Source of the DNA: an uncultured Gammaproteobacteria bacterium
GTDB lineage: Bacteria > Patescibacteriota > Microgenomatia > UBA12405 > UBA6130
Reading direction: 5' to 3'
Assembly (NCBI GenBank): GCA_964540975.1
Contig: CAZIOQ010000055.1
Span: 1-38,060 of the forward strand
DNA: 38,060 nucleotides
Positions 1,890 to 36,951 of the stretch are shown piece by piece. The notes under the pieces were generated by a model that did no database searches, was not told where the DNA came from, and saw only the letters and a list, made by a program, of their open reading frames with translations. Positions within the stretch are counted from its first letter, which is position 1. Each line of letters begins with the position of its first letter. Both the position numbers and the translations under genes were made by a program.

Positions 1890-3114
1890 GAGGAAATTTT
1901 TGACAAAGTTTTTTTACTTCTTGGCGAACTTTTCTAATTGTTTTTGGCGAAGCAATCACATTTTTAATCAAATTACCAATTACTTTCATTTCTTTTTTTT
2001 TCATTCCTCTGGCGGTTATTGCTGGTGTGCCTAGGCGAATACCAGAAGGACGATAGGGAGGATTAGGGTCATTAGGAATTGTATTGGCGTTGACAACAAT
2101 GCCTGCTTTTTCTAAATTCTCAGCCGCGCTTTTGCCATCAATTCTAAAATTTCTTAAGTCAATTACCATTAAGTGATTGTCAGTGCCATTAGTTACCAGT
2201 TGAAAACCTTGTTTTTTTAATTCTTCAGCCAAAACTTGGGCATTGGTGAGTATTTGTTTGGCATATTTTTTAAAACTTGGTTGGCGAGCTTTTTTTAAAG
2301 CAATGGCAATACCGGCAATAGTAGAAAGATGTGGTCCGCCTTGCAGCCCGGGGAAAACCGCCCGATTAATTTTTTCCCCTAATTGATGATCTTTGCTTAA
2401 ACCTTTTTTGGTCACCAAAATTATTGCTCCTCTTGGTCCTCTTAGAGTTTTGTGGGTGGTGGTGGTAATAATCTCAGCCCAATTAACAGGCGAAGGATGG
2501 ACTCCGGCAGCAACCAAGCCAGCAATATGGCTAATATCAGCCAAAAGATAGGCTTTAACTTTTTGAGCAATTTTGGCAAACTTTTGCCAATCTAAAATTC
2601 TAGGAAAGGCAGTGGTGCCAACAACAATAATTTTTGGCTTTTGATTGAGGGCTAATTCTTCAATTGCTTGAAAATCAAACCAGTCAGCGGTTTTTCGCTT
2701 TAAATCAACCTCATATTGAATGCTTTGAAAATATTTTCCTGAAAAGGTGATTTTGGGCTGGCCATGGGTAAGATGTCCACCATGACTTAATTTTAAACCC
2801 ATTAGTTTATCGCCGGGATTTAAAAGAGCAAAATAAACAGCCATATTTGCCGGAGAGCCAGAATAGGGTTGAACATTGGCAAAAGGAACGGCAAAAAGTT
2901 TTTTCGCTTGATTAATCGCCTCGGTTTCGATTTGATCAACAAACTCCATTCCTTGGTAATATCTTTTCTGAGGATAACCTTCAGCGTATTTGTGCATCAG
3001 ACAAGAGCCAACAACCTTTCTTACCTCAGGATAGGTATAATTTTCCGAGGGAATCATCATTAAGGTTTCTTGCTGACGCTTTTTTTCTTTTGCCAAAAGA
3101 GAAAAAATTTTCAT
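1876..3114 (-). CDS. glyA: Serine hydroxymethyltransferase
   Basis: 412 aa with LMMIPSENYTYPEV, YAEGYPQKRYYQG and the PLP-lysine region TTTTHKTLRGPRG. Confidence 0.95.
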   Translation of the reverse strand: MKIFSLLAKEKKRQQETLMMIPSENYTYPEVRKVVGSCLMHKYAEGYPQKRYYQGMEFVDQIETEAINQAKKLFAVPFANVQPYSGSPANMAVYFALLNPGDKLMGLKLSHGGHLTHGQPKITFSGKYFQSIQYEVDLKRKTADWFDFQAIEELALNQKPKIIVVGTTAFPRILDWQKFAKIAQKVKAYLLADISHIAGLVAAGVHPSPVNWAEIITTTTHKTLRGPRGAIILVTKKGLSKDHQLGEKINRAVFPGLQGGPHLSTIAGIAIALKKARQPSFKKYAKQILTNAQVLAEELKKQGFQLVTNGTDNHLMVIDLRNFRIDGKSAAENLEKAGIVVNANTIPNDPNPPYRPSGIRLGTPAITARGMKKKEMKVIGNLIKNVIASPKTIRKVRQEVKKLCQKFPLNLD

Positions 3115-3251
3115 TTTGATCTAGGCAGCTTATAAACTATTTTATATTAACACTGATAGCCATCAAGCTCAAGGCCAAATGCCCGCTGGCCAAAAGGAGG
3201 AGTTGTGATAAAATCAGATGAAGTCTCTTGGCTGGAAGGGCATAAACAACG

Positions 3252-4205
3252 ATGATCAGTCCTGAAATCTTGAGTAATGAAGGCAGAAAAGAAGTTTCTC
3301 AAATAAGGGTGATTGAGGAGATTACCCGCAATGTCAAGGTGGTAGAAATTGATGGTAGAAGAAAATATCAGGTAATTTGGAGAGCAGGGACAGTGGGTCT
3401 AGAAGGAAAAGAATCTTTTAAAAAAGGAGAACCAGTGGTTTGTTATTTCGAGACAGCTCAGCAAGTTATTCACCAGCATGAGCGGGTTTTAGAGGGATAT
3501 TTAGGAACAGAGATTCCTTTGGCGGCCGGAAAAATTCTGGCTATTCCTGGCGAAACCCAAAAAATGGCCAGAATTTCCCAAGAACTTTCTTCTTTGGCTA
3601 GCCAATTTGTCATTCCTTTTACTTCTCAATCGTCAGCTCAACTAAAAGAGAGAGTGTTAAAAATAAAAGAAGAAATTGGCCGGGTGACTAATGAGTACAA
3701 ACAAAAAGCCCAATTTAAGTTGGGAGAAGTCTTTTTTTCTCAAGATGAGCGAAAAGCAAGCGAAGCAACGTTTTTGGCCAATTTGGCGATTTTAAAGAGA
3801 GCAGAGGAATGTTTGGACATAGTCGGTGGTACCAATTCAAGACTGCGGCGAGTAGTCAACAAAAAAGCTGAGTGGGAGGAAACAATCAGTCAAATATTTT
3901 ACGACGTAGCCCAAATCGTTAAAGATTTGGAAAGTGGAGTTTATGCTGGCCATCCCCGGAAGCGGGAACAGCTAGCTCGTCATATTTCTGGCCAAAGCGG
4001 GTGGTCTTTAGCCGGAAAGCTCAGCCAGATTTCTGGGCCTGAATATTGGCAAAGAATTCAGACGCGGGAGGTCCAGGGACTTTGGCGAGTAGGGGAACTT
4101 TTACGGGTAGGAAAAGACGAAGAAGCAAAAAGGGTTTTAATCACGGCAATTTTAAAACTGGAAAGAGTAGTTAAAGAAAAAGCTAAGCAGGAGCAAGATA
4201 GATAA
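3252..4205 (+). CDS. Hypothetical protein, 317 aa, helical and charged
   Basis: Long ATG-initiated ORF with no competing frame and no recognisable motif. Confidence 0.55.
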   Translation: MISPEILSNEGRKEVSQIRVIEEITRNVKVVEIDGRRKYQVIWRAGTVGLEGKESFKKGEPVVCYFETAQQVIHQHERVLEGYLGTEIPLAAGKILAIPGETQKMARISQELSSLASQFVIPFTSQSSAQLKERVLKIKEEIGRVTNEYKQKAQFKLGEVFFSQDERKASEATFLANLAILKRAEECLDIVGGTNSRLRRVVNKKAEWEETISQIFYDVAQIVKDLESGVYAGHPRKREQLARHISGQSGWSLAGKLSQISGPEYWQRIQTREVQGLWRVGELLRVGKDEEAKRVLITAILKLERVVKEKAKQEQDR

Positions 4206-5418
4206 GACCAACAGCTAAATTGGGATTTTCTTGATTAAATTGGTTTACCTCTTGGGAAAAATCATGAACCGCACCGTAAACTAAAGCAAATTTTTGGCCA
4301 GGAGCAAAGGCAGGATGTTGACTAATTAAATCTATCGCCACTTTTTCTCTGTCATCCATTGCTTGTTTTTCAAAATTATTTTCTTCTTCAACAATCTCTT
4401 TTGTTAACAAAGAAACGGCCTTTTTGTCTTTAAATGAGTCGAGCTGATTTAGTTTTTTTTCATATTCGCTTAAGGCAACCGCTGCTTCTTGGTTTTCCTT
4501 TAAGGTTTCGGTGGGATAAATTTCAATTTTGCCGTCAATAAACATTCTGAAAGGAGCTTCTAAAACTGCCTCAGATTCTCTCCCTTGGTGAGAAGAGGCG
4601 AGGATTTCGATTGATTTGGCGATTTCGTAAGCACTGACAAAAACTTCTTGTTCTTCGGGCTTCACGATCAAAGGTTGGGTTTGGAAATCGTTTTCTAATT
4701 CTTTTATTTTGTTTAAAACAATATAATCCAAAATTGCTTGGCAAATTGGGCATTGATGTTCTTTAGCAATTCCTTCAACTTGAAAATAATGATCAACTAG
4801 TTGTTGCCAGGCAAGAGCATCAGGCTTAAGAGGATCAAACATTCTTTCTTTTATCTTTCTTAAGTAGACTAAGATTTCTTTGCTTTCTTCAGAAACACCT
4901 TCAACAAATATTGCCTCAAACTGGCCTTGTTCCAAAACCCGCTCGATATTTCTCTGGTTTTGGGCAATTTCTTCTGAACGAATAATAGCTAAAGAACCGG
5001 CTGCAGGATGGAATTGACCGATATGGACAATAAATCGTTTGTTTTTATTGTTGATTTGCATTACTGGCTCAAAACCACAAATTTTTGGTTCAAAACCAAG
5101 AATTTCTCGAAAAACTCCTGGTTTAACTTTTTCTGCTTCTCGGGCAAATCTTGTTGGCAAACGGGGAGTTTCCTCTTGTTCTGACAAAATTAGCGAACCA
5201 ACCAGAGTGCCAGCAACACCAAGTATTCCCAAGCCTTGTAAAAATTCTCTCCTGGTCATTTTCTTTTTTTGTTCTCTGGTCAAAGCAGTCTCAATTTTTC
5301 TAGTTGATTGGAGGACATCTGGTTGGCGAAGGTTTTCTTCAATTGCTGCCTGAAGTTCTTGAAGAAGACTGGGTTTGGCTTTAGCGATTTCTAGTTCTGG
5401 GCTTTCTTTGCTGTCCAC
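4183..5418 (-). CDS. Hypothetical exported protein with a Tat-like signal (true start possibly ATG at 5259)
   Basis: MTRREFLQGLGILGVAGTLVGS (twin-arginine-like plus a hydrophobic helix) begins at residue 54 of the track ORF. The GTG at 5418 has no Shine-Dalgarno (SD) sequence. The rest of the protein is not recognisable; HIGQFH ... YGAVHDF are faintly TraB/Tiki-like. Confidence 0.6.
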   Translation of the reverse strand: MDSKESPELEIAKAKPSLLQELQAAIEENLRQPDVLQSTRKIETALTREQKKKMTRREFLQGLGILGVAGTLVGSLILSEQEETPRLPTRFAREAEKVKPGVFREILGFEPKICGFEPVMQINNKNKRFIVHIGQFHPAAGSLAIIRSEEIAQNQRNIERVLEQGQFEAIFVEGVSEESKEILVYLRKIKERMFDPLKPDALAWQQLVDHYFQVEGIAKEHQCPICQAILDYIVLNKIKELENDFQTQPLIVKPEEQEVFVSAYEIAKSIEILASSHQGRESEAVLEAPFRMFIDGKIEIYPTETLKENQEAAVALSEYEKKLNQLDSFKDKKAVSLLTKEIVEEENNFEKQAMDDREKVAIDLISQHPAFAPGQKFALVYGAVHDFSQEVNQFNQENPNLAVGLIYLAPA

Positions 5419-5559: not shown

Positions 5560-5634
5560 CGGGGTGTAGTTCATCAGGAGAACGTTCGGTTCGGGACCGA
5601 AAGGTAAGAGGTGCGACTCCTCTCACCCCGACCA
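5560..5634 (+). tRNA. tRNA-Pro (anticodon CGG), CCA encoded
   Basis: Hand-folded cloverleaf. Acceptor CGGGGTG/CACCCCG, anticodon arm TTCGG-TTCGGGA-CCGAA, T arm AGAGG-TGCGACT-CCTCT, discriminator A, then CCA. Confidence 0.9.
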
Positions 5635-5725: not shown

Positions 5726-6442
5726 TTAACATATTACCTTTATATTTATATTATCAAAAAGCTGAGCCAGATTACTTACATCCCAAATTTTTTCCAGGTG
5801 ATATTTTTTATAAACCCAATCAGCATAATGATAGTTCATCTTGTCCAAAATCACATAATCTACCTTGCCTTTTAATCTTTTTGCCAATTCCTCGGCCCCA
5901 GGCAGAATTGGGGCAATCATCAGGTAATTTCTAATCCCCTCTTGATGTAATTTCTCCAAAGCTTTAATTCTTTGTTCAATTGGTGGTGCTTTTGGCTCAA
6001 AAATTCTTCGAATCTGTTCGCTGGCGGTAGTAATTGTCAACCCAACCTCGATCTCTTTAAATTTTTTAAACAAATCCAAATCCCTCAAAACCAAAGGTGA
6101 TTTTGTCTGAATTACTACTGGCCAGTTGTTTGCCAAAAAAATTTCTAAGCATTTTCTGGTTAACTGGTATTTTTTCTCCAGCGGCTGATAAGGATCACAA
6201 ACCCCGCTTATCCAAACTTTGTCGTTTTTCTTTCTTTTGATTTCTTTTGTCAACAATTCGGCCGCATTAATCTTAATATCAACAAATTTTCCCCACTTTT
6301 CCTTATGACCGGTATATTTTTTCATAAAAACAGCAAAGCAATAAACACAGCCATGCTGACAACCGGTATAAGGATTAAGCGTCCAGGGGTAAACTTTTGA
6401 TTTAGAAAGAATATTTTTCGCCAAAATTTTCCTTATTACCAT
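5726..6442 (-). CDS. Radical SAM protein, SplB/COG1533-like (DNA repair photolyase family)
   Basis: Contains the CxxxCxxC cluster motif GCQHGCVYCFA. The start is set at MVIRKILAKNILSKSKVY (ATG 6442), which matches typical family N-termini. The track ORF extends to a TTG at 6562. Confidence 0.85.
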   Translation of the reverse strand: MVIRKILAKNILSKSKVYPWTLNPYTGCQHGCVYCFAVFMKKYTGHKEKWGKFVDIKINAAELLTKEIKRKKNDKVWISGVCDPYQPLEKKYQLTRKCLEIFLANNWPVVIQTKSPLVLRDLDLFKKFKEIEVGLTITTASEQIRRIFEPKAPPIEQRIKALEKLHQEGIRNYLMIAPILPGAEELAKRLKGKVDYVILDKMNYHYADWVYKKYHLEKIWDVSNLAQLFDNINIKVIC

Positions 6443-16480: not shown

Positions 16481-17206
16481 TTAGGCGGGCAATTTGTCCC
16501 AAATATTAGTCGGACCTTCCTTTCTTTTTTGGTTTTCGATCGCTTCTTGTTTTTGGTGAATTAAAATTCTTATCTCTTCGACCATTTCTTGATTTTGGCT
16601 GATCCAATATCTTTCCTCCAAACGCTGAAGCAAAAACAGCTCAAAATGAGCAAGATTACCAGAGCGATTAACTGCCTCAAGGCTATCAAGGTATCTTTCT
16701 TTTTGGGAAGGCCAGATAATGATTGGTTTTAAGTCAAGTAGTTTCGCTACCAGATCAGCGAAAAGTCTGCCAGTACGGCCATTACCATCTTCAAAAGGAT
16801 GAATTCTGACAAAAATATAGTGGCTAAAAGCAACTGTTTGAATTTTTTTGGCTAAAGATTCCCTGGTTCGAGGAGCTGTTTTTAACGGTTCAATTTTGTT
16901 ATTTAAATCACTAACAAGTTCTCTCATTAGTTCAGGCACTCGCAGGTAATGGGGTGGGGTGACGCTGGCCTGAGAAATGCCCACATTACAAGTCCGATAT
17001 TTTCCGGTGGCACTTTCTGGCAAAATTCCATCCATAACCATAAAATGAATTTGTTTTATTGTTTCTTCGCTAATTGCTTCTTTTTTTCTTGCTATCCTAT
17101 CAGCATATTGCCATGCCCGATGAGCATTCTGAAAAGCTCTTATAGCTAATTTTTCTTGACCAAAAGGAAATTCAGGGGTTGGTTGGTTTGTTTGGATCTC
17201 CACCAT
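16481..17206 (-). CDS. Fic-domain protein (AMPylase-type toxin)
   Basis: Carries the canonical Fic motif HPFEDGNGRTGR (HxFx[D/E]GNGRxxR). The ATG at 17206 is preferred over the TTG at 17221. Confidence 0.9.
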   Translation of the reverse strand: MVEIQTNQPTPEFPFGQEKLAIRAFQNAHRAWQYADRIARKKEAISEETIKQIHFMVMDGILPESATGKYRTCNVGISQASVTPPHYLRVPELMRELVSDLNNKIEPLKTAPRTRESLAKKIQTVAFSHYIFVRIHPFEDGNGRTGRLFADLVAKLLDLKPIIIWPSQKERYLDSLEAVNRSGNLAHFELFLLQRLEERYWISQNQEMVEEIRILIHQKQEAIENQKRKEGPTNIWDKLPA

Positions 17207-17417
17207 TATTATTCTTAGCAAATATTTTAGTCAATTGATCAATTGTTGAAGGAGACAAATCAAATTTTTCTTCAAGCATTCTTTTGAGGGTTTTTGAGGA
17301 AAGAAAGATGTTTTCTAAGGCTAAGTTAGCCAGGATCGCCGCTGCCTTTTCAAATTTTTCAAGCTCCTGAAGTTGATTTTGGTTATTGTGATCAATATCT
17401 TTTTCTTTGCTTAACAT
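17172..17417 (-). CDS. VbhA-like antitoxin / Fic inhibitory-helix protein (candidate)
   Basis: An 81-aa ORF directly upstream of Fic whose 3' end overlaps the Fic start. ANLALENIFLSS aligns with the [S/T]xxxE[G/N] inhibitory motif, with N replacing S/T. Confidence 0.6.
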   Translation of the reverse strand: MLSKEKDIDHNNQNQLQELEKFEKAAAILANLALENIFLSSKTLKRMLEEKFDLSPSTIDQLTKIFAKNNNGGDPNKPTNP

Positions 17418-17422
17418 AACCT

Positions 17423-17430
17423 ATTATACA
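17423..17430 (-). promoter_or_regulatory. Extended -10 TGTATAAT only 5 nt upstream of the antitoxin ATG (implies a leaderless mRNA)
   Basis: The minus strand reads TTGTATAATAGGTTATG. There is no SD. Confidence 0.4.
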
Positions 17431-17487
17431 ATATTTTGGCTAGATTTTCTTCTGATTTTTTAGTCTGCAATTGGTTTTGGGTGGCTT

Positions 17488-17883
17488 TCACTGTGGGTCA
17501 AGATGAAGCAGACTCTGCTTTGCCGGCGAGGAGGCAGTATTCTCCCTAGGCGCCAACCTGTTTTCGCCTCTTAGGTGGACGGATATATTAGGTTTCCAAA
17601 AATGGGATTTTAAATCAACCTGGAATTTGCCAATAAATTTTATTTCCTCTTTTTTTAATTTTTCTTTTTGGGTTTTTGCTCCGCCGAAGCTGTAATTTTT
17701 TGCCAAAAAACCAAAGCGATTAATTACCCGATGACAAGGAATATTTTTATCTTTATTGGCATGAAGTGCCCAGCCGACAATTCTTGAATCTTTGATTCTC
17801 AAAGCTTTGGCAATTTCTCCGTAAGTAGTTACTTTGCCTTTGGGAATTTTGGCAACTAAATTGCGAATTTTTCTAAAAGTCAT
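17488..17883 (-). CDS. MGMT-family (Ogt C-terminal domain only) alkyltransferase-like protein with an aberrant C-terminal extension
   Basis: Contains TTYGEIA and IPCHRVI (active-site PCHR). The family-like sequence ends near FWKPN. The last ~32 codons read through the 39-nt repeat motif. Confidence 0.85.
   Translation of the reverse strand: MTFRKIRNLVAKIPKGKVTTYGEIAKALRIKDSRIVGWALHANKDKNIPCHRVINRFGFLAKNYSFGGAKTQKEKLKKEEIKFIGKFQVDLKSHFWKPNISVHLRGENRLAPRENTASSPAKQSLLHLDPQ
17545..17583 (+). repeat. 39-nt hairpin motif, copy A (second copy at 24352..24390)
   Basis: cctaggcgccaacctgttttcgcctcttaggtggacgga versus cctaggtgtcaacctgtttccaccttttaggtggacgga. Identity is 34/39, all five differences are transitions, and both copies have the same orientation. 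Confidence 0.75.
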
Positions 17884-17962: not shown

Positions 17963-18157
17963 TCACCTTAAGGCAGACACGATGCCTCTCGGTTCAGGAC
18001 ATCTTTTGAGGTCTTCCCGGGTGAGCGAGAGCTTTTCCGTTCTGTATTCCTCTTCAATCTCAACTGGGCCTACCCCTGGGTCACCCTTATGTCGCCCACC
18101 TAACTCTGATTCCCCTGACGGTTGAGTATTCTCAAGAACTCTATCTCTTTCTCTCAT
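17963..18157 (-). CDS. Orphan 64-aa ORF in a GC-rich block (coding status uncertain)
   Basis: AAAGGAG lies 8 nt upstream of the ATG, and TGATATAAT (18207-18215, minus strand) lies upstream of that. The composition is unlike neighbouring genes and no homology is recognised. Confidence 0.3.
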   Translation of the reverse strand: MRERDRVLENTQPSGESELGGRHKGDPGVGPVEIEEEYRTEKLSLTREDLKRCPEPRGIVSALR

Positions 18158-18439
18158 TGTTGATTATCTCCTTTGTCGGGTATATATCTGACATCTTCTA
18201 ACCCTTATTATATCATCTAGTTTCTAAGGTTGGAAAGGTACATCCAGAAGATGAGAAACATCACTGACGGTTCTCACTCAAACTATGTCAACGATGAAAA
18301 GGAGAAAAGATATATTCTCACTGCCATAGATTATCTCCATAAGATTGGTTATGCCAGAGTATACAAAATGGCTTCTTCTTTGTCTGCTTTTGATTTTCTT
18401 TTGAGATTAAATGTTTTGGGTGTTGGTTAAAGGAAAAAT

Positions 18440-18713: not shown

Positions 18714-18844
18714 ATAGGTTACGAAACATTTTAGACATTGAGTAATTTGGATCATTACGCCAGGGTTTATCCTCTCTTTGGGTTTTAAATCACCCTTAGA
18801 CTACTTGTTTGAGAAAGGAGGGATGTCTAAAAAGTCTGTAACCT
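18714..18844 (+). repeat. 131-bp direct repeat, copy 1 (transposase C-terminus plus right terminus)
   Basis: Matches 24403..24533 at 129/131 positions by eye. Confidence 0.9.
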
Positions 18845-18849
18845 AATGC

Positions 18850-18877
18850 TTGACTTTTTTTGGAAAAATTCTAAAAT
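18850..18877 (+). promoter_or_regulatory. Sigma70-like promoter for the riboswitch-led transcript
   Basis: TTGACT (18850-18855), a 16-nt spacer, then TAAAAT (18872-18877). Confidence 0.45.
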
Positions 18878-18894
18878 GAAAACAGTTTAAAATT

Positions 18895-19022
18895 AAAAAT
18901 TGGTTTGAGCCACTGGCCAAATTTTGGCTGGGAAGGCTCCTTGTCTTTTTGACAAGCAGGGGAAACTGGCGAAATTCCAGTACTGTGCCGCAGCGGTATT
19001 GTCCGAAGACCGACCAATTTTT
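18895..19022 (+). promoter_or_regulatory. Cobalamin riboswitch (compact, no large P6 extension)
   Basis: A 10-bp P1 helix pairs AAAAATTGGT with ACCAATTTTT. The core reads GGGGAAACTGGCGAAATTCCAG, then ACTGTGCCGCAGCGGTA, then the B12 box GTCCGAAGACCGACC. This closely parallels the btuB leader and RF00174 consensus as I remember them. Confidence 0.8.
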
Positions 19023-19039
19023 TATCCCGAGCAGGATTT

Positions 19040-20059
19040 ATGAGCAAAGAAAATTTAGCTTGCGACCCAAAAAAATTTAAGGACAAATCTTTAAAAGAAA
19101 TTACCCTTGATTTGGGTTATTATGCTGCTGAACATGGTTTTTCTCCGGAAAATCTTGGCCAAAAAGGAATTTTTCTTATTGGTTATCAATATCTTGCCCA
19201 TCCCCCAAAAAACTCATTCTTAGCAATCAACCCATATGACAACCAACCATTGGCTAAAGATGTCAGAGACATGTTTGATACCACCAGCCTCCGGGGTCGG
19301 TTAGAAAAACAAGGATTTGAAAAACTGGTGGCAAAAATTTTTTCCTCTCCGCCAAAATCTTTTTTTATCTGGATTAGTCCTCCTGATCCCTATCCTTGGC
19401 CAAGGATTTATTTCGGCCAACTGGATCAGAAAAACGAAGATGGCAGTTTTTCTGTTGATGCTTTTGATTTTAACAATGATTTTAGCCAAGAAGAACTGGC
19501 GGCGATTTTATCTTTTTTTGACCCAACAATCAACCCAACAGTAACCAAAGATTTTATCTTAAATCCAGTGATTATTCCTAACCAGGAAGAAAAAACTTTT
19601 GTTGATCTCTTGACGCAAATCGAGACAGTGGTGAGACAAAAAAGAAAGGAGGAGAAAATTTTGATTCATCGGGTTCCTTTTAAGGAAGTAAAAAACCAAC
19701 TCAAGCATTTGGTCTGGCAAGAAAAATTAAAACAATTCAAAGTCCAAGGCGAATATCACAGCCAAATTATTTATCAGGCAATAAAAAATAACCGTTATCA
19801 TCAAGCCTTGTTGGCAGTAGCGGATTTTGAAATTGCCATCGCCAAAAAAGGTGGCTTTTTTGCTCCTGATTCAAGTTGCGGAAGAGCAATTTTCCAATTT
19901 TTAAATCAAGGCTTTAATTTAAGAGGTTTGCCCACAAGAGGAGTTTTCCTCAACCTAGAGCCTTTTCGATCAACCTGTCCAATTTGTGGCCAGCCGCTGC
20001 CAAAACCAATAGCAATAGGCGAATGCTGCCCTTGGTGCGGGACAGAAAGAAGATGTTGA
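19040..20059 (+). CDS. Hypothetical 339-aa protein with a C-terminal CxxC-x12-CCxxC zinc ribbon; the only gene downstream of the B12 riboswitch
   Basis: Clean ATG ORF with no TM segments apparent. It ends CPICGQPLPKPIAIGECCPWCG. No family recognised. Confidence 0.7.
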   Translation: MSKENLACDPKKFKDKSLKEITLDLGYYAAEHGFSPENLGQKGIFLIGYQYLAHPPKNSFLAINPYDNQPLAKDVRDMFDTTSLRGRLEKQGFEKLVAKIFSSPPKSFFIWISPPDPYPWPRIYFGQLDQKNEDGSFSVDAFDFNNDFSQEELAAILSFFDPTINPTVTKDFILNPVIIPNQEEKTFVDLLTQIETVVRQKRKEEKILIHRVPFKEVKNQLKHLVWQEKLKQFKVQGEYHSQIIYQAIKNNRYHQALLAVADFEIAIAKKGGFFAPDSSCGRAIFQFLNQGFNLRGLPTRGVFLNLEPFRSTCPICGQPLPKPIAIGECCPWCGTERRC

Positions 20060-20066
20060 ATTTGAT

Positions 20067-21659
20067 TCAGTCAAGAGAGGCAAATTTTTGCTTAATTAAC
20101 TTAAGATAAAAGTTAGCTTTAAAGGGATCATTTTTTTGTTGATAAAGAAGGACTAAATTTTCATAAGCCTGAAGATAATTAGGATTAATTTCAATTGTCT
20201 TAAGCCAAAATTTCTCTGCCTGGTTAAGATTGCCTTGTTGATAATAAACCAGGCCAAGGTTAAAATAGGCGCGATCATAAAGGGGATTGATTGCAAGCTC
20301 TTTTTTGAACTCTTCTTCTGCTTGAGCAAAGAGCTTTTTTTCAAGATAAATCACCCCCAAATTGTTATGAGCCATTGGCTCTTGGGGATTTAAGGCTAAT
20401 GATTTTTTATATTCTTCCTCTGCTTTGTCAGTTAAGCCTGCCAAAAAATACATTACCCCTAAATTCCGATGAGCCAGAGGATGGGAAGGAGAGCGGGTAA
20501 CTGCCTCTTGCCAAAAAATCATCCGGTTTTTGAATTTTTCGCTCTGGCGAAAGGTGATTGAAGATAAGATGAGAATGATTGTTAGGGCCAAGAGAAGATG
20601 AAGTTTGTTTTTGGCAGAAAAAATTTTTAAAGGTTTTGTTTCTGCCAAAACAATCAAAAACCCAATCAAAGACAAATAAATTCGATGTTCATATAGAGAA
20701 AAACTAGCCTCAAGTTGGATTAGATTGGGAATTGAAAACAGAAGAAACCAAGAAAAACCAATCAAAAGACGGTTTAGTTGTTTGTCTTTGGTCAAGAAGA
20801 TAAGGATGGTTAAGAGGAGAAGGGCAAAAAGACCATAAGAAAAAGTGGTTTCTTTTAAAGTTGGCAAAACAGTTAAATTGAGAGGAAAAACAATTTTGCC
20901 TAAAAATTGAATTGTTGCTGGCAAGTTTCTAACAACAGAGGAAACAACATCGGCAAATCCGTAATCTAAGGGATTTTTTAAGCCAAAGCTTCTTAAGATA
21001 AACCAGAAAAACAAAATTATCAGCCAGCCTAAAAAAAGCAAAAGCAATCGGGGAGTAATGATTCTCTCTTTTTTCATTAGCCAAAGATAGAGCAGGGCTA
21101 ACATTGGTATCACCAAGGCTGATTCTTTAGTCAAGATAGCTAAGCCAAAAAGCAAAAGATGGTAAAAATAATCTTTTGTTTGGGATTTTTCAAAAAATTT
21201 GAACAAAAAGATAAAGCTTGAGAGAACAAAAATCGCCAGGAGAGAATCGTTTCTGCCCGGAATCCAAGCCACTGCTTGAGTTAAGACTGGATGGACAGTA
21301 AAAATAAGGGTTAGGAATAAAGCCTGATCGCAGGGGTATTTTAATCTTTTTAAGAAAGCGAAGACCAGGCAACTGGCGCCAAGATGAAGCAAGACATTGA
21401 CCAGATGATAACCCCAAGCCGAAGTGCCGCTCAATTGGCTGTTTAAAATAAAAGAAATGGTTAAAAGCGGCCGATAATAGGCAGTTGCTTGAGTGTTTAA
21501 AAAAGCATCGTGAGCAAAAGCAGCCAAAATATTGGCTAAATTTTTTATAAAATAAAAATTATCTAAAATCAAAACATTATCATCGAGATAGGTAAAATCA
21601 AAAAATAAAGTCTTAAAATAAAGCAAAAAGCCGACCAGGATAATTATTAGGTACCCCAT
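20067..21659 (-). CDS. Multi-pass membrane glycosyltransferase-like protein (PMT_2/TMTC-type) with C-terminal TPR repeats
   Basis: The N-terminus has FTYLDDNVLI and about 10 TM helices. The C-terminus has repeated TPR motifs (AHRNLGVMY, AHNNLGVIY, AYFNLGLVY). ATG 21659 is preferred over TTG 21704. Confidence 0.8.
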   Translation of the reverse strand: MGYLIIILVGFLLYFKTLFFDFTYLDDNVLILDNFYFIKNLANILAAFAHDAFLNTQATAYYRPLLTISFILNSQLSGTSAWGYHLVNVLLHLGASCLVFAFLKRLKYPCDQALFLTLIFTVHPVLTQAVAWIPGRNDSLLAIFVLSSFIFLFKFFEKSQTKDYFYHLLLFGLAILTKESALVIPMLALLYLWLMKKERIITPRLLLLFLGWLIILFFWFILRSFGLKNPLDYGFADVVSSVVRNLPATIQFLGKIVFPLNLTVLPTLKETTFSYGLFALLLLTILIFLTKDKQLNRLLIGFSWFLLFSIPNLIQLEASFSLYEHRIYLSLIGFLIVLAETKPLKIFSAKNKLHLLLALTIILILSSITFRQSEKFKNRMIFWQEAVTRSPSHPLAHRNLGVMYFLAGLTDKAEEEYKKSLALNPQEPMAHNNLGVIYLEKKLFAQAEEEFKKELAINPLYDRAYFNLGLVYYQQGNLNQAEKFWLKTIEINPNYLQAYENLVLLYQQKNDPFKANFYLKLIKQKFASLD

Positions 21660-21813
21660 TTTATTAAATTCAAAAATCAATCCGCCCCGCCAGCTGGCGG
21701 TCAAATATCAAAACTTTAGATTAATTGTCAATTTTTCTGGCAGAGCCAGATCTCGCTTCGCGAGACAATGACTCAATTTTTAAATAAGCAAAGCTTGTTT
21801 CTAACAAAATAAA

Positions 21814-21880: not shown

Positions 21881-22633
21881 CTATATTCTAAATTCTAAAT
21901 GAATGAGTCTTTTTAGTAAATATTTCCCAGCGACTAAAAGAGTTCCCAAGCCATATTTTAAACTCCGCTTAAAATTAATCGAGGAGGCTTCGGGAAAATA
22001 GCGCACCGGAACAGGGATTTCGCCAATTCTAAAACCTTTTTCAATGATTTGGAACAAAATTTGGCTGTCAAAGACAAAATCATCAGAATTTTTTAGAAAA
22101 TCAATATTCTTCAAAACCTTTCTTTTGTAAGCTCTCATCCCAGTATGCCATTCGGAAAGGTTATAACCAGTGACCAGATTTTCAATAATGGTTAAAAATC
22201 GGTTGCCAAAATATTTATATAAAGGCATTCCGCCGGCTAAAGCCTCTTTTCGGCTTCTAATTCGTGATCCTAACATGACATCAAAATAGCCTTCGGCAAT
22301 AAACTCCACAAAATATTTGATTAATTTTGGGTCATATTGGTAGTCCGGATGAAGCATCACAATAATATCCGGTTGGTGTTTTAAAGCTAGGGTATAGCAA
22401 GTTTTTTGGTTAGCACCATAGCCTTTGTTTTGGGGATGCTTAAAAACGGTTAATTTTAATTTTTTGGCTAATTTGACCGTTTGATCACGGCTAGCGTCGT
22501 CAACCAAGATTATTTCATCAACATATTCTTTTGGGATTTCAGCGATTGTTTTTTCAAGGGTCTTGGCGGCGTTATAGGCAGGCAAAACGACGATTGTTTT
22601 GGATTTTTTAAAAGAATTAATCGTGATTGCCAT
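21881..22633 (-). CDS. Family 2 glycosyltransferase (dolichyl/polyprenyl-phosphate sugar synthase-like)
   Basis: Contains [15 protein letters not shown] and [12 protein letters not shown], with a DxD-type GT-A fold signature. Confidence 0.9.
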
Positions 22634-24538: not shown

Positions 24539-25621
24539 TGTCTAGGTCCAAACACATTCCGTACACTTCATAACTAATGAAAGGGCGTTACATACAATGG
24601 AGTGTATATGACAGCCCACAAAATACTTCCGGGGGCAAAAACTTTAGCAAGGATTCTGGATATTAGTCCAGAAGCTAAAAGGAGACTGAGGTGGCTTGAT
24701 TGGTATTTGCCCACGGAAGAAATGCTCAACTAACCTGCCGCCACTTTGGGATATCTCCTGATACTTTCTACCACTGGAAGAAAAGATTTAAACCCGGTTG
24801 TTTGGTAACCCTAGAAAGCTATTCTTCTTTACCCCATTCCTTCAGGCAATTCAGAATTCCTTTGGAAACTGTTAATCTGATTATTCAATTAAGAAGGGAG
24901 GAGATGGGTTTATCCAAATACAAGCTTTTTTTAATCCTTAAAAGAGATTATGGTGTTACTCTTTCTCCTTCCTCTATTGGTAGGATCCTTATCAAGAAAG
25001 GATTAATTAAAGAAGCCAGGATCTCCAAAAATGTTAAAAGAAGAAGGAAAATTAATTATGTTATTCCCAGGATTAGAGCCTCAAAGCAGTTAAGATATCA
25101 ATATCCAGGATTTCTAGTTCAGGTTGATACCAAACACTTAATTATCTTAGGAAGAAAATATTATCAGTTTACTGCCATAGATTTTATTCAAAATTCAGTT
25201 TCTCTTATGCCTATACTAAGGCTTCCTCTTCAACTGCTAAAGATTGTCTTTTAAGGCTTGTTAATTATTTTCCTTTCAAGATCAAAGCCATTCAAACAGA
25301 TAATGGCTCAGAATACCTCCTTTACTTTCATCAGGAATGTGTAAAAAGAGAAATCAAACACTATTTCTCTCATCCAAGAAATCCCAAAGATAATTCCCCG
25401 GTAGAAAGATTAATCCAAACCACTGATATGAATTATGGTTGTTTGATGAAACTCTAATCTTTGAACTAGACTATCTTAACCAGAAATTCTCTTTTTGGAT
25501 TGGCTGGTACAATACCTACCGGCTACACCAGTCCCTTAACTATTTAACTCCTATGGAGTATTATCAACTTAGTCAACAAAAGAAAGGAGGAAAAGTGGAC
25601 GGGATGTAGTGGACCAGAACA
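24539..25621 (+). mobile_element. IS481-like insertion sequence (~1.08 kb) with imperfect terminal inverted repeats and an inactivated transposase
   Basis: IRL is TGTCTAGGTCCAAACACATTCCGTACACTT. The reverse complement of IRR is TGTTCTGGTCCACTACATCCCGTCCACTT. The internal transposase carries a DDE/rve signature. Confidence 0.8.
24608..25609 (+). pseudogene. IS481-family transposase, frameshifted in at least three places
   Basis: MTAHKILPGAKTLARILDISPEAKRRLRWLDWY shifts frame into FAHGRNAQLTCRHFGISPDTFYHWKKRF...VQVDTKH...YQFTAIDF. Another shift leads into IQTDNGSEY...SHPRNPKDNSPVER, and a further shift into WYNTYRLHQSLNYLTPMEYY. Confidence 0.85.
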
Positions 25622-36802: not shown

Positions 36803-36876
36803 TGCCAGCGGGCGGGATCGAACCGCCGACCTTGGGGTTATGATTCCCACGCTCTAACCAACTGAGCTACACTGGC
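36803..36876 (-). tRNA. tRNA with CAU anticodon (elongator Met or Ile2 type), no encoded CCA
   Basis: Reverse complement: GCCAGTGTAGCTCAGTTGGTTAGAGCGTGGGAATCATAACCCCAAGGTCGGCGGTTCGATCCCGCCCGCTGGCA. It has a G1:C72 pair and the T arm GGCGG-TTCGATC-CCGCC. Confidence 0.9.
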
Positions 36877-36878
36877 TT

Positions 36879-36951
36879 TGGTTGCGGGGCCAGGAGTTGA
36901 ACCTAGTCCAGGAGATTATGGGTCTCCTATGCTGCCGTACACCACCCCGCT
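36879..36951 (-). tRNA. tRNA with CAU anticodon, initiator-like acceptor (A1/A72 mismatch), C33, CCA encoded
   Basis: Reverse complement: AGCGGGGTGGTGTACGGCAGCATAGGAGACCCATAATCTCCTGGACTAGGTTCAACTCCTGGCCCCGCAACCA. The anticodon arm is GGAGA-CCCATAA-TCTCC. Confidence 0.85.

Follow-up and report, generated by a model that had tools for sequence, protein, structure and literature searches.

A cobalamin riboswitch variant with a transposed Cbl-I hairpin in Patescibacteria and the candidate B12-linked protein family behind it

Cobalamin riboswitches are classed by the peripheral elements that surround a fixed core, and these elements are thought to set the selectivity for adenosylcobalamin (AdoCbl) or methylcobalamin (MeCbl). 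E. coli btuB and T. tengcongensis 4GMA are examples of the Cbl-I class (RF00174), and env8 is an example of the Cbl-II class (RF01689). Patescibacteria have tiny genomes, do not synthesize B12, and often have an AdoCbl-dependent ribonucleotide reductase (RNR). On contig CAZIOQ010000055.1 (38,060 nucleotides; hereafter the window, i.e., the whole stretch of DNA analysed, whose positions are used throughout), a leader on the plus strand precedes a gene for a protein of 339 amino acids (aa), here named X. A sequence-only reading of this DNA had proposed that the leader is a compact cobalamin riboswitch and that its sole target is an unrecognisable protein. This locus therefore raises two questions: what kind of cobalamin riboswitch the leader is, if it is one, and what its target does. 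In this study, the leader was found to be a real riboswitch of a new structural variant that controls a new B12-linked protein family; the RNA side is well supported, and the role of the protein is a strong lead.

The whole window was scanned with Rfam at gathering thresholds (36.5 bits for RF01689 and 31.5 bits for RF00174), and positions 18780-19120 were scanned permissively. At gathering thresholds, no cobalamin family was reported in the window, and RF00174 and RF01482 gave no match in the Rfam scan. In the permissive scan, RF01689 (AdoCbl-II) matched 18946-19020 with 35.1 bits (E 8.5e-7). Positions 1-81 of the model were aligned, and its outer helices fit the window badly, with non-canonical pairs. 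Of the two models that the sequence-only reading had singled out for a search, RF01689 thus gave a match that lies under its gathering score, and RF00174 gave none that was reported. The leader of the closest homologue of X (L001/L002) passes RF00174 with 51 bits against the cutoff of 31.5, and the leaders of distant X genes also reach Rfam cobalamin thresholds.

A set of 17 leaders (the window and 16 related leaders) shares one layout, called permuted here and described below. The conserved core of the cobalamin riboswitch clan CL00101, comprising the GGGAA junction, P4, P5, P6, the B12 box, and the P1/P3 closure, is present in the window, and its blocks are invariant in the 17 leaders. The core blocks read earlier were found in place (GGGGAAACTGGCGAAATTCCAG at 18959-18980, ACTGTGCCGCAGCGGTA at 18982-18998, and the B12 box GTCCGAAGACCGACC at 19001-19015), as was a P1 helix pairing 18895-18904 with 19013-19022, to which a U.G pair (18905/19012) adds an eleventh base pair. 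The L5 GCC and the CGG/CCG of P6 do not vary across the leaders, and the B12 box is conserved. P1 is 7-11 bp long in the leaders and 11 bp in the window, compared with approximately 3 bp by chance (stem-length null). It occurs in approximately 11 sequence versions among the related leaders, and every version is paired.

A covariance model, R1 (151 positions, 41 base pairs), was trained on 16 leaders with the window held out. Positions 18895-19042 scored 99.6 bits (E 1.1e-19) over the full length of R1, and the next best match in the window scored 13.8 bits. A DNA pattern scan with one genome per species returned at least 120 loci, mostly ordinary riboswitches (Streptomyces, Proteobacteria, and others), and is incomplete as a census of the permuted variant. 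When R1 was applied to the pattern-scan loci, just the nine training loci scored (97-138 bits) among the matches listed, and none of the approximately 110 ordinary riboswitch loci from other genomes reached E 1e-3. The short non-permuted leaders of loci linked to an adenosyltransferase gene scored 30-40 bits.

Plain MAFFT alignments misregistered the variable hairpins. In a hand-registered (N-padded) leader alignment, 32 of 49 pairs covary; the figure of 100% paired obtained from this alignment is circular, so the stem-length null and an alignment made by Infernal were added. The covariation tests were run on the Infernal-made alignment, which includes the window, with 500 shuffles and slid partners as nulls. 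In this alignment, 90.6% of cells were paired, compared with 72.6% in the shuffles, and 27 of the 41 base pairs had changed on both sides. The covariation score was 0.473, compared with 0.169 in the shuffles (none of the 500 reached it) and at most 0.165 with slid partners. The identity proposed earlier is thus borne out by the RF01689 match, the passage of the RF00174 threshold by L001, the R1 score, and covariation. By its core, covariation, and gene association, the RNA belongs to the cobalamin riboswitch clan, and the assignment of 18895-19037 as a cobalamin riboswitch with a standard ligand-binding core is well supported.

P1 and the core are separated by 50 nt (18906-18956) that are not spacer but hold two hairpins. 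When the first hairpin was submitted alone (18903-18943), 18909-18937 matched RF00174 positions 108-135 of 189 with 13.9 bits (E 0.023). The window hairpin follows this part of the model (gCCACUG...CGGGAAGGc) almost base for base, and Infernal put the hairpin of a 5'-truncated leader, L005, at the same RF00174 positions. Positions 108-135 of RF00174 belong to the P6 extension, on the 3' side of the core, and the GGGAA junction is at approximately model position 47. At 18909-18937, the window has the Cbl-I hallmark hairpin, GCCACUG...GGGAAGGC with its A and GAA bulges, at a changed position in the chain. A Cbl-I peripheral hairpin is thus transposed to the 5' side of the core, between P1 and P3. 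Because the peripheral module is transposed, RF00174 fails on the window and RF01689 sees the core only.

The leaders have a common order. The 5' strand of P1 is followed by the hairpin (GCCAYUG-stem-loop-GRGAAGGC), sometimes a second hairpin, and the GGGAA junction. Then come P4, P5 (CUGU-GCC-GCAG), a short or absent P6 extension, CCGAAGACC, the 3' strand of P1, and a hairpin before the AUG. Both hairpin stems covary in the 17 leaders, whereas no leader departs from the A and GAA bulges or from the GCC/GGC pairs that flank them. Invariant bulges amid freely covarying stems speak for a specific tertiary contact and against a stem that only stabilises the fold. In a subgroup of leaders (L003 at 126-269, L007, L129, L130, L134, and L135), a GC-rich P4 and a variable loop replace the T-loop-like L4 (UGAAAUU), and the usual L4-L6 docking is probably lost or replaced there.

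The permuted layout was found at a minimum of nine pattern-scan loci. Eight of these carry the genome labels Microgenomates, Roizmanbacteria, Shapirobacteria, or 'Patescibacteria group'; the remaining one, labelled Gammaproteobacteria, is probably a case of mis-binning. The upstream DNA of relatives was read where the contig includes it, the contigs being short, and the permuted layout precedes every close homologue of X with such DNA. The metagenome-assembled genome of L114 is labelled Gammaproteobacteria and has a Patescibacteria-type leader and gene order; it may be mis-binned. RF01482 was considered as an existing model of the permuted form and was rejected, since its consensus has no 5' hairpin. 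In literature searches, no description was found of a permuted cobalamin riboswitch, of any cobalamin riboswitch from Patescibacteria, or of the X protein family.

The window RNA shares with Cbl-I the GGGAA junction, P4/L4, P5 and its loop, P6, the B12 box, the P1 closure, and the GCCACUG...GGGAAGGC hairpin. It differs in having no P7-P11 extension on P6 and in carrying the hairpin 5' rather than 3' of the core. The adenosyl pocket of Cbl-I is shaped by J11/10, a part of the P7-P11 extension, through its conserved adenosines (PMC7367189). The minimal P6, the small core, and the translational platform are shared with Cbl-II (RF01689), a class that also controls distant X genes. However, the window has 50 nt with two hairpins where Cbl-II has a short J1/3 alone between P1 and P3 (PMC7367189). 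The sequence-only reading had placed the leader in the short AdoCbl-variant/Cbl-II class. The minimal P6 (3 bp, 6-nt loop) agrees with that placement, whereas the Cbl-I hairpin on the 5' side, followed by a P2-like hairpin, does not. The RNA is neither Cbl-I nor typical Cbl-II, nor is it especially compact.

The nearest published architecture is that of B. subtilis yvrC, in which the P6 extension is missing and the adenosyl pocket is buttressed by a large P2 arm instead (Chan and Mondragon, 2020; PMC7367189). The topology is the same, with a large arm at the P2 position and a very short P6 extension. The yvrC arm has a GAAA-tetraloop L2A, a T-loop L2B, and a C19-G103 contact, and the text of PMC7367189 makes no mention of a GCCACUG/GAA motif. 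Compared with this published description, the window arm carries the Cbl-I GCCACUG/GAA motif, and a separate P2-like hairpin may follow it. yvrC is the only known member of its kind according to the same authors, whereas at least 17 Patescibacteria sequences make up the permuted family.

The hairpin before the AUG, P13, is kept at the same position in all leaders. Its stems covary, and its loop, L13, has the form CG(N1-3)CA. In the 14 leaders that were correctly parsed, the 3' end of P13 lies 1-8 nt before the AUG, and in the window P13 contains the Shine-Dalgarno purines; the AGGA that had been read 3 nt before ATG 19040 is indeed at 19033-19036. A kissing loop between L5 and L13 is the standard design of translational OFF switches. 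In the window, the L5 GCC is complementary to the G(A)GC of L13 if one base bulges out. The RF01482 consensus has an L5 CcC with an L13 GAGG, and its CGAGG loop is analogous to the window L13. The anatomy suggests that, with ligand bound, the L5 GCC would kiss L13 (C-G-A-G-C-A) of the 4-bp hairpin with the Shine-Dalgarno sequence, and that translation of X would then be blocked, making the leader an OFF switch. The GAA bulge may be the equivalent of J11/10, docking on the pocket from the P1-P3 junction, or it may buttress the pocket as the P2 arm of yvrC does. A GAA bulge that reached the pocket as a J11/10 equivalent would favour AdoCbl, and by this analogy AdoCbl is probably the preferred ligand. 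Intrinsic termination by P1 and the T tract was considered and rejected. The tract, read earlier as T7, is T6 (19018-19023) with five of its bases inside P1; other leaders do not conserve it, and no terminator was called there. The promoter read earlier (TTGACT, 16 nt, TAAAAT) is in its place and matches 10 of 12 consensus positions, yet such sites are not enriched over shuffles.

The open reading frame (ORF) behind the leader was confirmed as a 339-aa protein ending in CPICG-x11-CCPWCG, with a convergent next gene, and it is the sole riboswitch target in the window. X is cytoplasmic. The earlier description of X as unrecognisable was upheld by Pfam, NCBIfam, and PDB searches without a match, and its C-terminal four-Cys ribbon was confirmed. 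With Pfam-A/NCBIfam, window X and 63 superfamily members gave sub-threshold zinc-ribbon noise only, and the best E value of a PDB sequence search with X was 0.5. Close homologues are few: five were found among 5.8 billion clusters, and a scan of proteins from metagenome contigs added eight loci. An exhaustive profile search yielded a superfamily of 63 clusters (E up to 1e-3). A word-indexed search with the 63-sequence alignment returned 11 proteins, none with an informative name ('hypothetical protein' only). The other permuted riboswitches are followed by ORFs of 340-440 aa that belong to the X superfamily (phmmer E down to 1e-33 against distant relatives); a narrow six-sequence profile did not reach these ORFs, and the link was made via the distant relatives. 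At L037 (6631-6781, minus strand), a Shapirobacteria locus, the permuted riboswitch is intact (98.4 bits) and the ORF behind it has 68 aa of low complexity. The X gene there is probably disrupted, or the assembly is wrong.

Near-invariant positions in the superfamily are E31, S113-P114 (W.SPPG motif), C280 (GSCG), and the four ribbon cysteines. The latter (C313, C316, C330, and C333; 63 sequences) form two CPxCG knuckles whose spacing of approximately 10-17 residues fits a zinc-ribbon/rubredoxin-like module. Most X proteins have five Cys in the C-terminal tail (ribbon CPxCG...CPxCG-x4-C); the majority consensus of the superfamily ends in Cys, and the terminal Cys is invariant in the close family. 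AlphaFold with the 63-sequence alignment gave a model with pLDDT 90.6 and pTM 0.82 (an earlier model had pLDDT 75.8). The predicted structure comprises a PAS-like alpha/beta domain, a helical domain, a low-confidence Cys loop (C280), a disordered linker (296-310), and the ribbon. In a Foldseek search of the pLDDT 90.6 model against the PDB, no match had E up to 1e-3 (best E 0.017, query TM-score at most 0.22), and the pLDDT 75.8 model had no significant match in the PDB. A weak PAS/LOV-like resemblance over approximately 115 residues, seen with Foldseek against the PDB, was not relied on.

The sequence-only reading had let its case hang on whether homologues of X are riboswitch-linked, and a cobalamin-type leader was found before every homologue with upstream DNA. 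In eight loci of distant superfamily members (L067, L114, L136, L137, L139, L140, L141, and L142), X lies directly after a gene for a PF01923 PduO-type cob(I)alamin adenosyltransferase. nrdJ, encoding a class II RNR with a TSCPD tail, precedes the adenosyltransferase gene in seven of the eight; the exception is L141, where the contig ends. nrdR lies upstream of nrdJ in L114, L136, L137, and L139. At L114 (3301-6735), nrdJ was matched in two pieces approximately 1 kb apart; an intein or an insertion may separate them.

The position of the switch differs among these loci. The adenosyltransferase and X genes follow a cobalamin riboswitch in L136 and L139 and a cobalamin-type leader in L142 (33.9 bits on R1), with a gap of 4-23 nt between the two genes. 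The adenosyltransferase and X genes of L137 and L140 are preceded by separate switches or leaders. The L137 riboswitches are approximately 670 nt apart in one operon, at 5046-5193 before the adenosyltransferase gene (RF01482, 50.3 bits) and at 5862-5940 before X (RF01689, 38.8 bits); L140 has the same double arrangement in weaker form. In L067, L114, and L141, the switch lies between the two genes, and in L067 and L114 it is a permuted switch with X alone behind it. X is thus the constant target and the adenosyltransferase a frequent partner, which fits feedback repression of AdoCbl supply by AdoCbl. The riboswitch target family is linked to B12 metabolism genes in the eight loci, and the window joins them by homology only. 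The idea that a riboswitch-linked orphan gene points to a salvage function gains support from this context.

NrdJ at L136, L137, and L139 has the C-terminus CPECGSGTLAYEEGCKKCYSCGYSEC, the six-Cys zinc/redox array of Loderer et al., 2017 (PMC5704485). The Cys-rich domain of class II RNR described there and X have in common a flexible tail with CxxC...CxxC and an extra Cys at the C-terminus, whereas most X proteins have five Cys rather than six, and the rest of the protein is unrelated. Homology of the X tail to the NrdJ tail was considered and rejected, since the match is not significant; the likeness was kept as an analogy only.

From gene context, X would be a cytoplasmic accessory factor of cobalamin salvage that works with the PduO-type ATP:cob(I)alamin adenosyltransferase, the two supplying AdoCbl to class II RNR. 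Its most likely job would be to bind the incoming corrinoid and to remove the upper ligand and/or reduce the cobalt, for which the invariant Cys loop and, on its flexible linker, the Cys-rich C-terminal module would be used. AdoCbl, the end product, would shut X off. A proposed preparation of cobalamin for the adenosyltransferase is common to X and to CblC/MMACHC, CblD, PduS, and BtuM, as a functional analogy only, since X has no sequence or fold similarity to these proteins. Cys-cobalt chemistry is used by several of the four. The role of X is read from gene context only and is a strong lead, not a result. The whole explanation, in which an OFF switch represses a cobalamin-processing accessory protein, accounts best for RNA, control, and protein together, and we judge it fairly probable.

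Several points weigh against this explanation. The window RNA falls under the Rfam curated threshold for every cobalamin model, RF01689 being short by 1.4 bits. We infer the OFF direction, the kissing loop, and the AdoCbl selectivity alike; the kissing loop has no covariation in this set because L5 is invariant, and the equation of the GAA bulge with J11/10 is an analogy drawn from the Rfam model and the description in PMC7367189. The genes of the 38-kb window include neither an adenosyltransferase gene nor nrdJ, so the function is carried over from relatives at approximately 15-25% identity, and the close subfamily (P0001-P0006), on short contigs, was never seen beside these genes. The fold of X is unlike those known for cobalamin-binding proteins, reductases, or CblC-like proteins, thiols are ill suited to the Co(II)-to-Co(I) step, and the metal of the four-Cys site may be Zn or Fe. 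The sub-threshold scores would suit a decayed, non-functional riboswitch remnant, as would the adjoining short ORFs, which the sequence-only reading took for insertion sequence debris. Yet the core blocks are identical in 16 other leaders at protein identities down to <25%, compensatory changes occur in every variable helix, and the held-out model gives the window 99.6 bits, so that decay is hardly credible. A different objection concerns the class of the RNA, which could be a riboswitch of the short Cbl-II type whose P1-P3 junction is decorated. The 5' hairpin would then be a P2-type arm, off the ligand pocket, with a convergent or coincidental likeness to Cbl-I, and the ligand preference may be for MeCbl or hydroxocobalamin (HyCbl) or may be promiscuous. 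The best Rfam match is to RF01689 and not to RF00174, the RF00174 match of the hairpin alone is short and low (13.9 bits, E 0.023), distant X genes lie under plain short riboswitches without the 5' hairpin, and yvrC, with a P2 arm and a short P6, binds promiscuously (PMC7367189). Convergence is, however, difficult to reconcile with A/GAA bulges and GCC/GGC flanks that stay invariant in 17 leaders while the stems covary, and with a nearly base-for-base match to the RF00174 consensus; we therefore consider it unlikely.

The role of the protein can also be read in other ways. X could be a protein of B12 starvation, that is, a B12-independent substitute or bypass repressed by B12, for example one for deoxynucleotide supply when NrdJ lacks its cofactor. 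B12-independent isozymes are common targets of repression by B12 riboswitches, and metE and nrdAB/nrdEF are so repressed in other bacteria. X is close to nrdJ and unlike known cobalamin-handling proteins, and in L067 and L114 the switch controls X and not the adenosyltransferase. Tight co-transcription of X with the adenosyltransferase gene behind one switch in L136, L139, and L142 speaks against a bypass, as does the make-up of X, a 340-aa PAS-like Zn-ribbon protein without features of a nucleotide reductase or kinase, and such a role is rather improbable. Alternatively, X could be the redox partner of class II RNR that reduces the six-Cys C-terminal tail of NrdJ. The NrdJ beside X ends in a C-x2-C-x10-C-x2-C-x2-C-x4-C array, X itself ends in CPxCG...CPxCG-x4-C on a disordered linker and shares gene order with nrdJ, and thioredoxin and glutaredoxin both failed as reductants of the six-Cys array in PMC5704485. 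However, ample B12 should not turn off a protein that assists a B12-dependent enzyme, a profile comparison of the X and NrdJ tails gave no significant match (approximately 5 bits), and X is separate from nrdJ in the window and at the other loci where neither the adenosyltransferase gene nor nrdJ was found. This makes a redox partner of NrdJ quite improbable, and we retain the salvage role of X, repressed by AdoCbl, as the preferred explanation. Its boldest form combines two claims: that the transposed adenosyl-pocket hairpin keeps its tertiary role and defines a new subclass so far confined to Patescibacteria, and that X is a new cobalamin-processing family feeding PduO and class II RNR. Taken jointly, these are a serious possibility that we would nevertheless call somewhat doubtful.

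A Cbl-I element that is kept but attached elsewhere in the chain is a natural experiment on the modularity of RNA tertiary structure, and the permuted layout explains the under-detection of Patescibacteria riboswitches by curated models. X is a concrete, purifiable candidate for a missing step in corrinoid processing by Patescibacteria, because it is always under a B12 switch and often lies directly after the adenosyltransferase gene. If the proposed role is true, the X family feeds the adenosyltransferase in bacteria without known cobalamin-processing systems. X also bears on the native reductant of class II RNRs with a Cys-rich tail, a question from 2017.

Table 1. Positions of the leader elements and of gene X in the window.
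Feature	Positions	Strand	Remarks
Promoter-like site, TTGACT, 16-nt spacer, TAAAAT	18850-18855; 18872-18877	+	Consensus match only, 10/12; AT-rich DNA
P1 5' strand, AAAAAUUGGUU	18895-18905	+	Pairs with 19012-19022
Transposed peripheral hairpin	18907-18939	+	Pa GAGCC/GGCUC, A bulge 18912; Pb CUGGCCAA/UUGGCUGG, GAA bulge 18932-18934
P2-like hairpin, CUUGUC-UUUUU-GACAAG	18940-18956	+	Facultative; in the window, L001, L050, L114, and L067; absent from other leaders
GGGAA junction J3/4	18960-18964	+	P3 formed by G18960 and G18961 with C19011 and C19010; invariant in all leaders
P4/L4, ACUGG-CGAAAUU-CCAGU	18965-18981	+	5/5 P4 pairs covary
P5/L5, CUGU-GCC-GCAG	18983-18993	+	Covariation at one P5 pair (U-A with G-C); L5 does not vary, and its GCC would be the kissing partner
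Minimal P6, CGG-UAUUGU-CCG (3 bp, 6-nt loop)	18994-19005	+	No extension; 7 to 49 nt here in other leaders
B12 box, GUCCGAAGACCGACC	19001-19015	+	CCGAAGACC invariant in 16/17 leaders
P1 3' strand, GACCAAUUUUU	19012-19022	+	
Expression platform P13/L13, AUCC-CGAGCA-GGAU	19024-19037	+	Ends 2 nt before the AUG; included in R1
Shine-Dalgarno sequence, AGGA	19033-19036	+	In the L13 loop and the 3' arm of P13; 3 nt before ATG 19040
Gene X, 339 aa	19040-20059	+	Next gene (20067-21704) convergent

The genes of the window include SHMT, FolD, RtcB, MreB, glycosyltransferases, and DUF4012, a typical Patescibacteria content. The short ORFs upstream of the promoter lie at 17963-18430, and one of them, a 66-aa ORF at 18230-18430, is by eye a possible recombinase/transposase fragment. 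Just upstream, on the opposite strand (16481-17883), are a Fic-domain protein and a 131-aa protein that has only the DNA-binding domain of O6-methylguanine methyltransferase. An ORF at 24700-25254 with HTH_28 and HTH_32 only suggests an N-terminal transposase fragment. At L003, a GT2 glycosyltransferase gene starts 9 nt after X and may be co-transcribed with it, and five tandem T4SS_pilin-like genes (2375-4219) follow X and the GT2 gene; in the window, a GT2 gene lies near X on the opposite strand (21881-22633). The sole Rfam matches at gathering thresholds in the window are three tRNA genes, one at 5560-5631 and two adjacent ones on the minus strand at 36803-36876 and 36882-36951.

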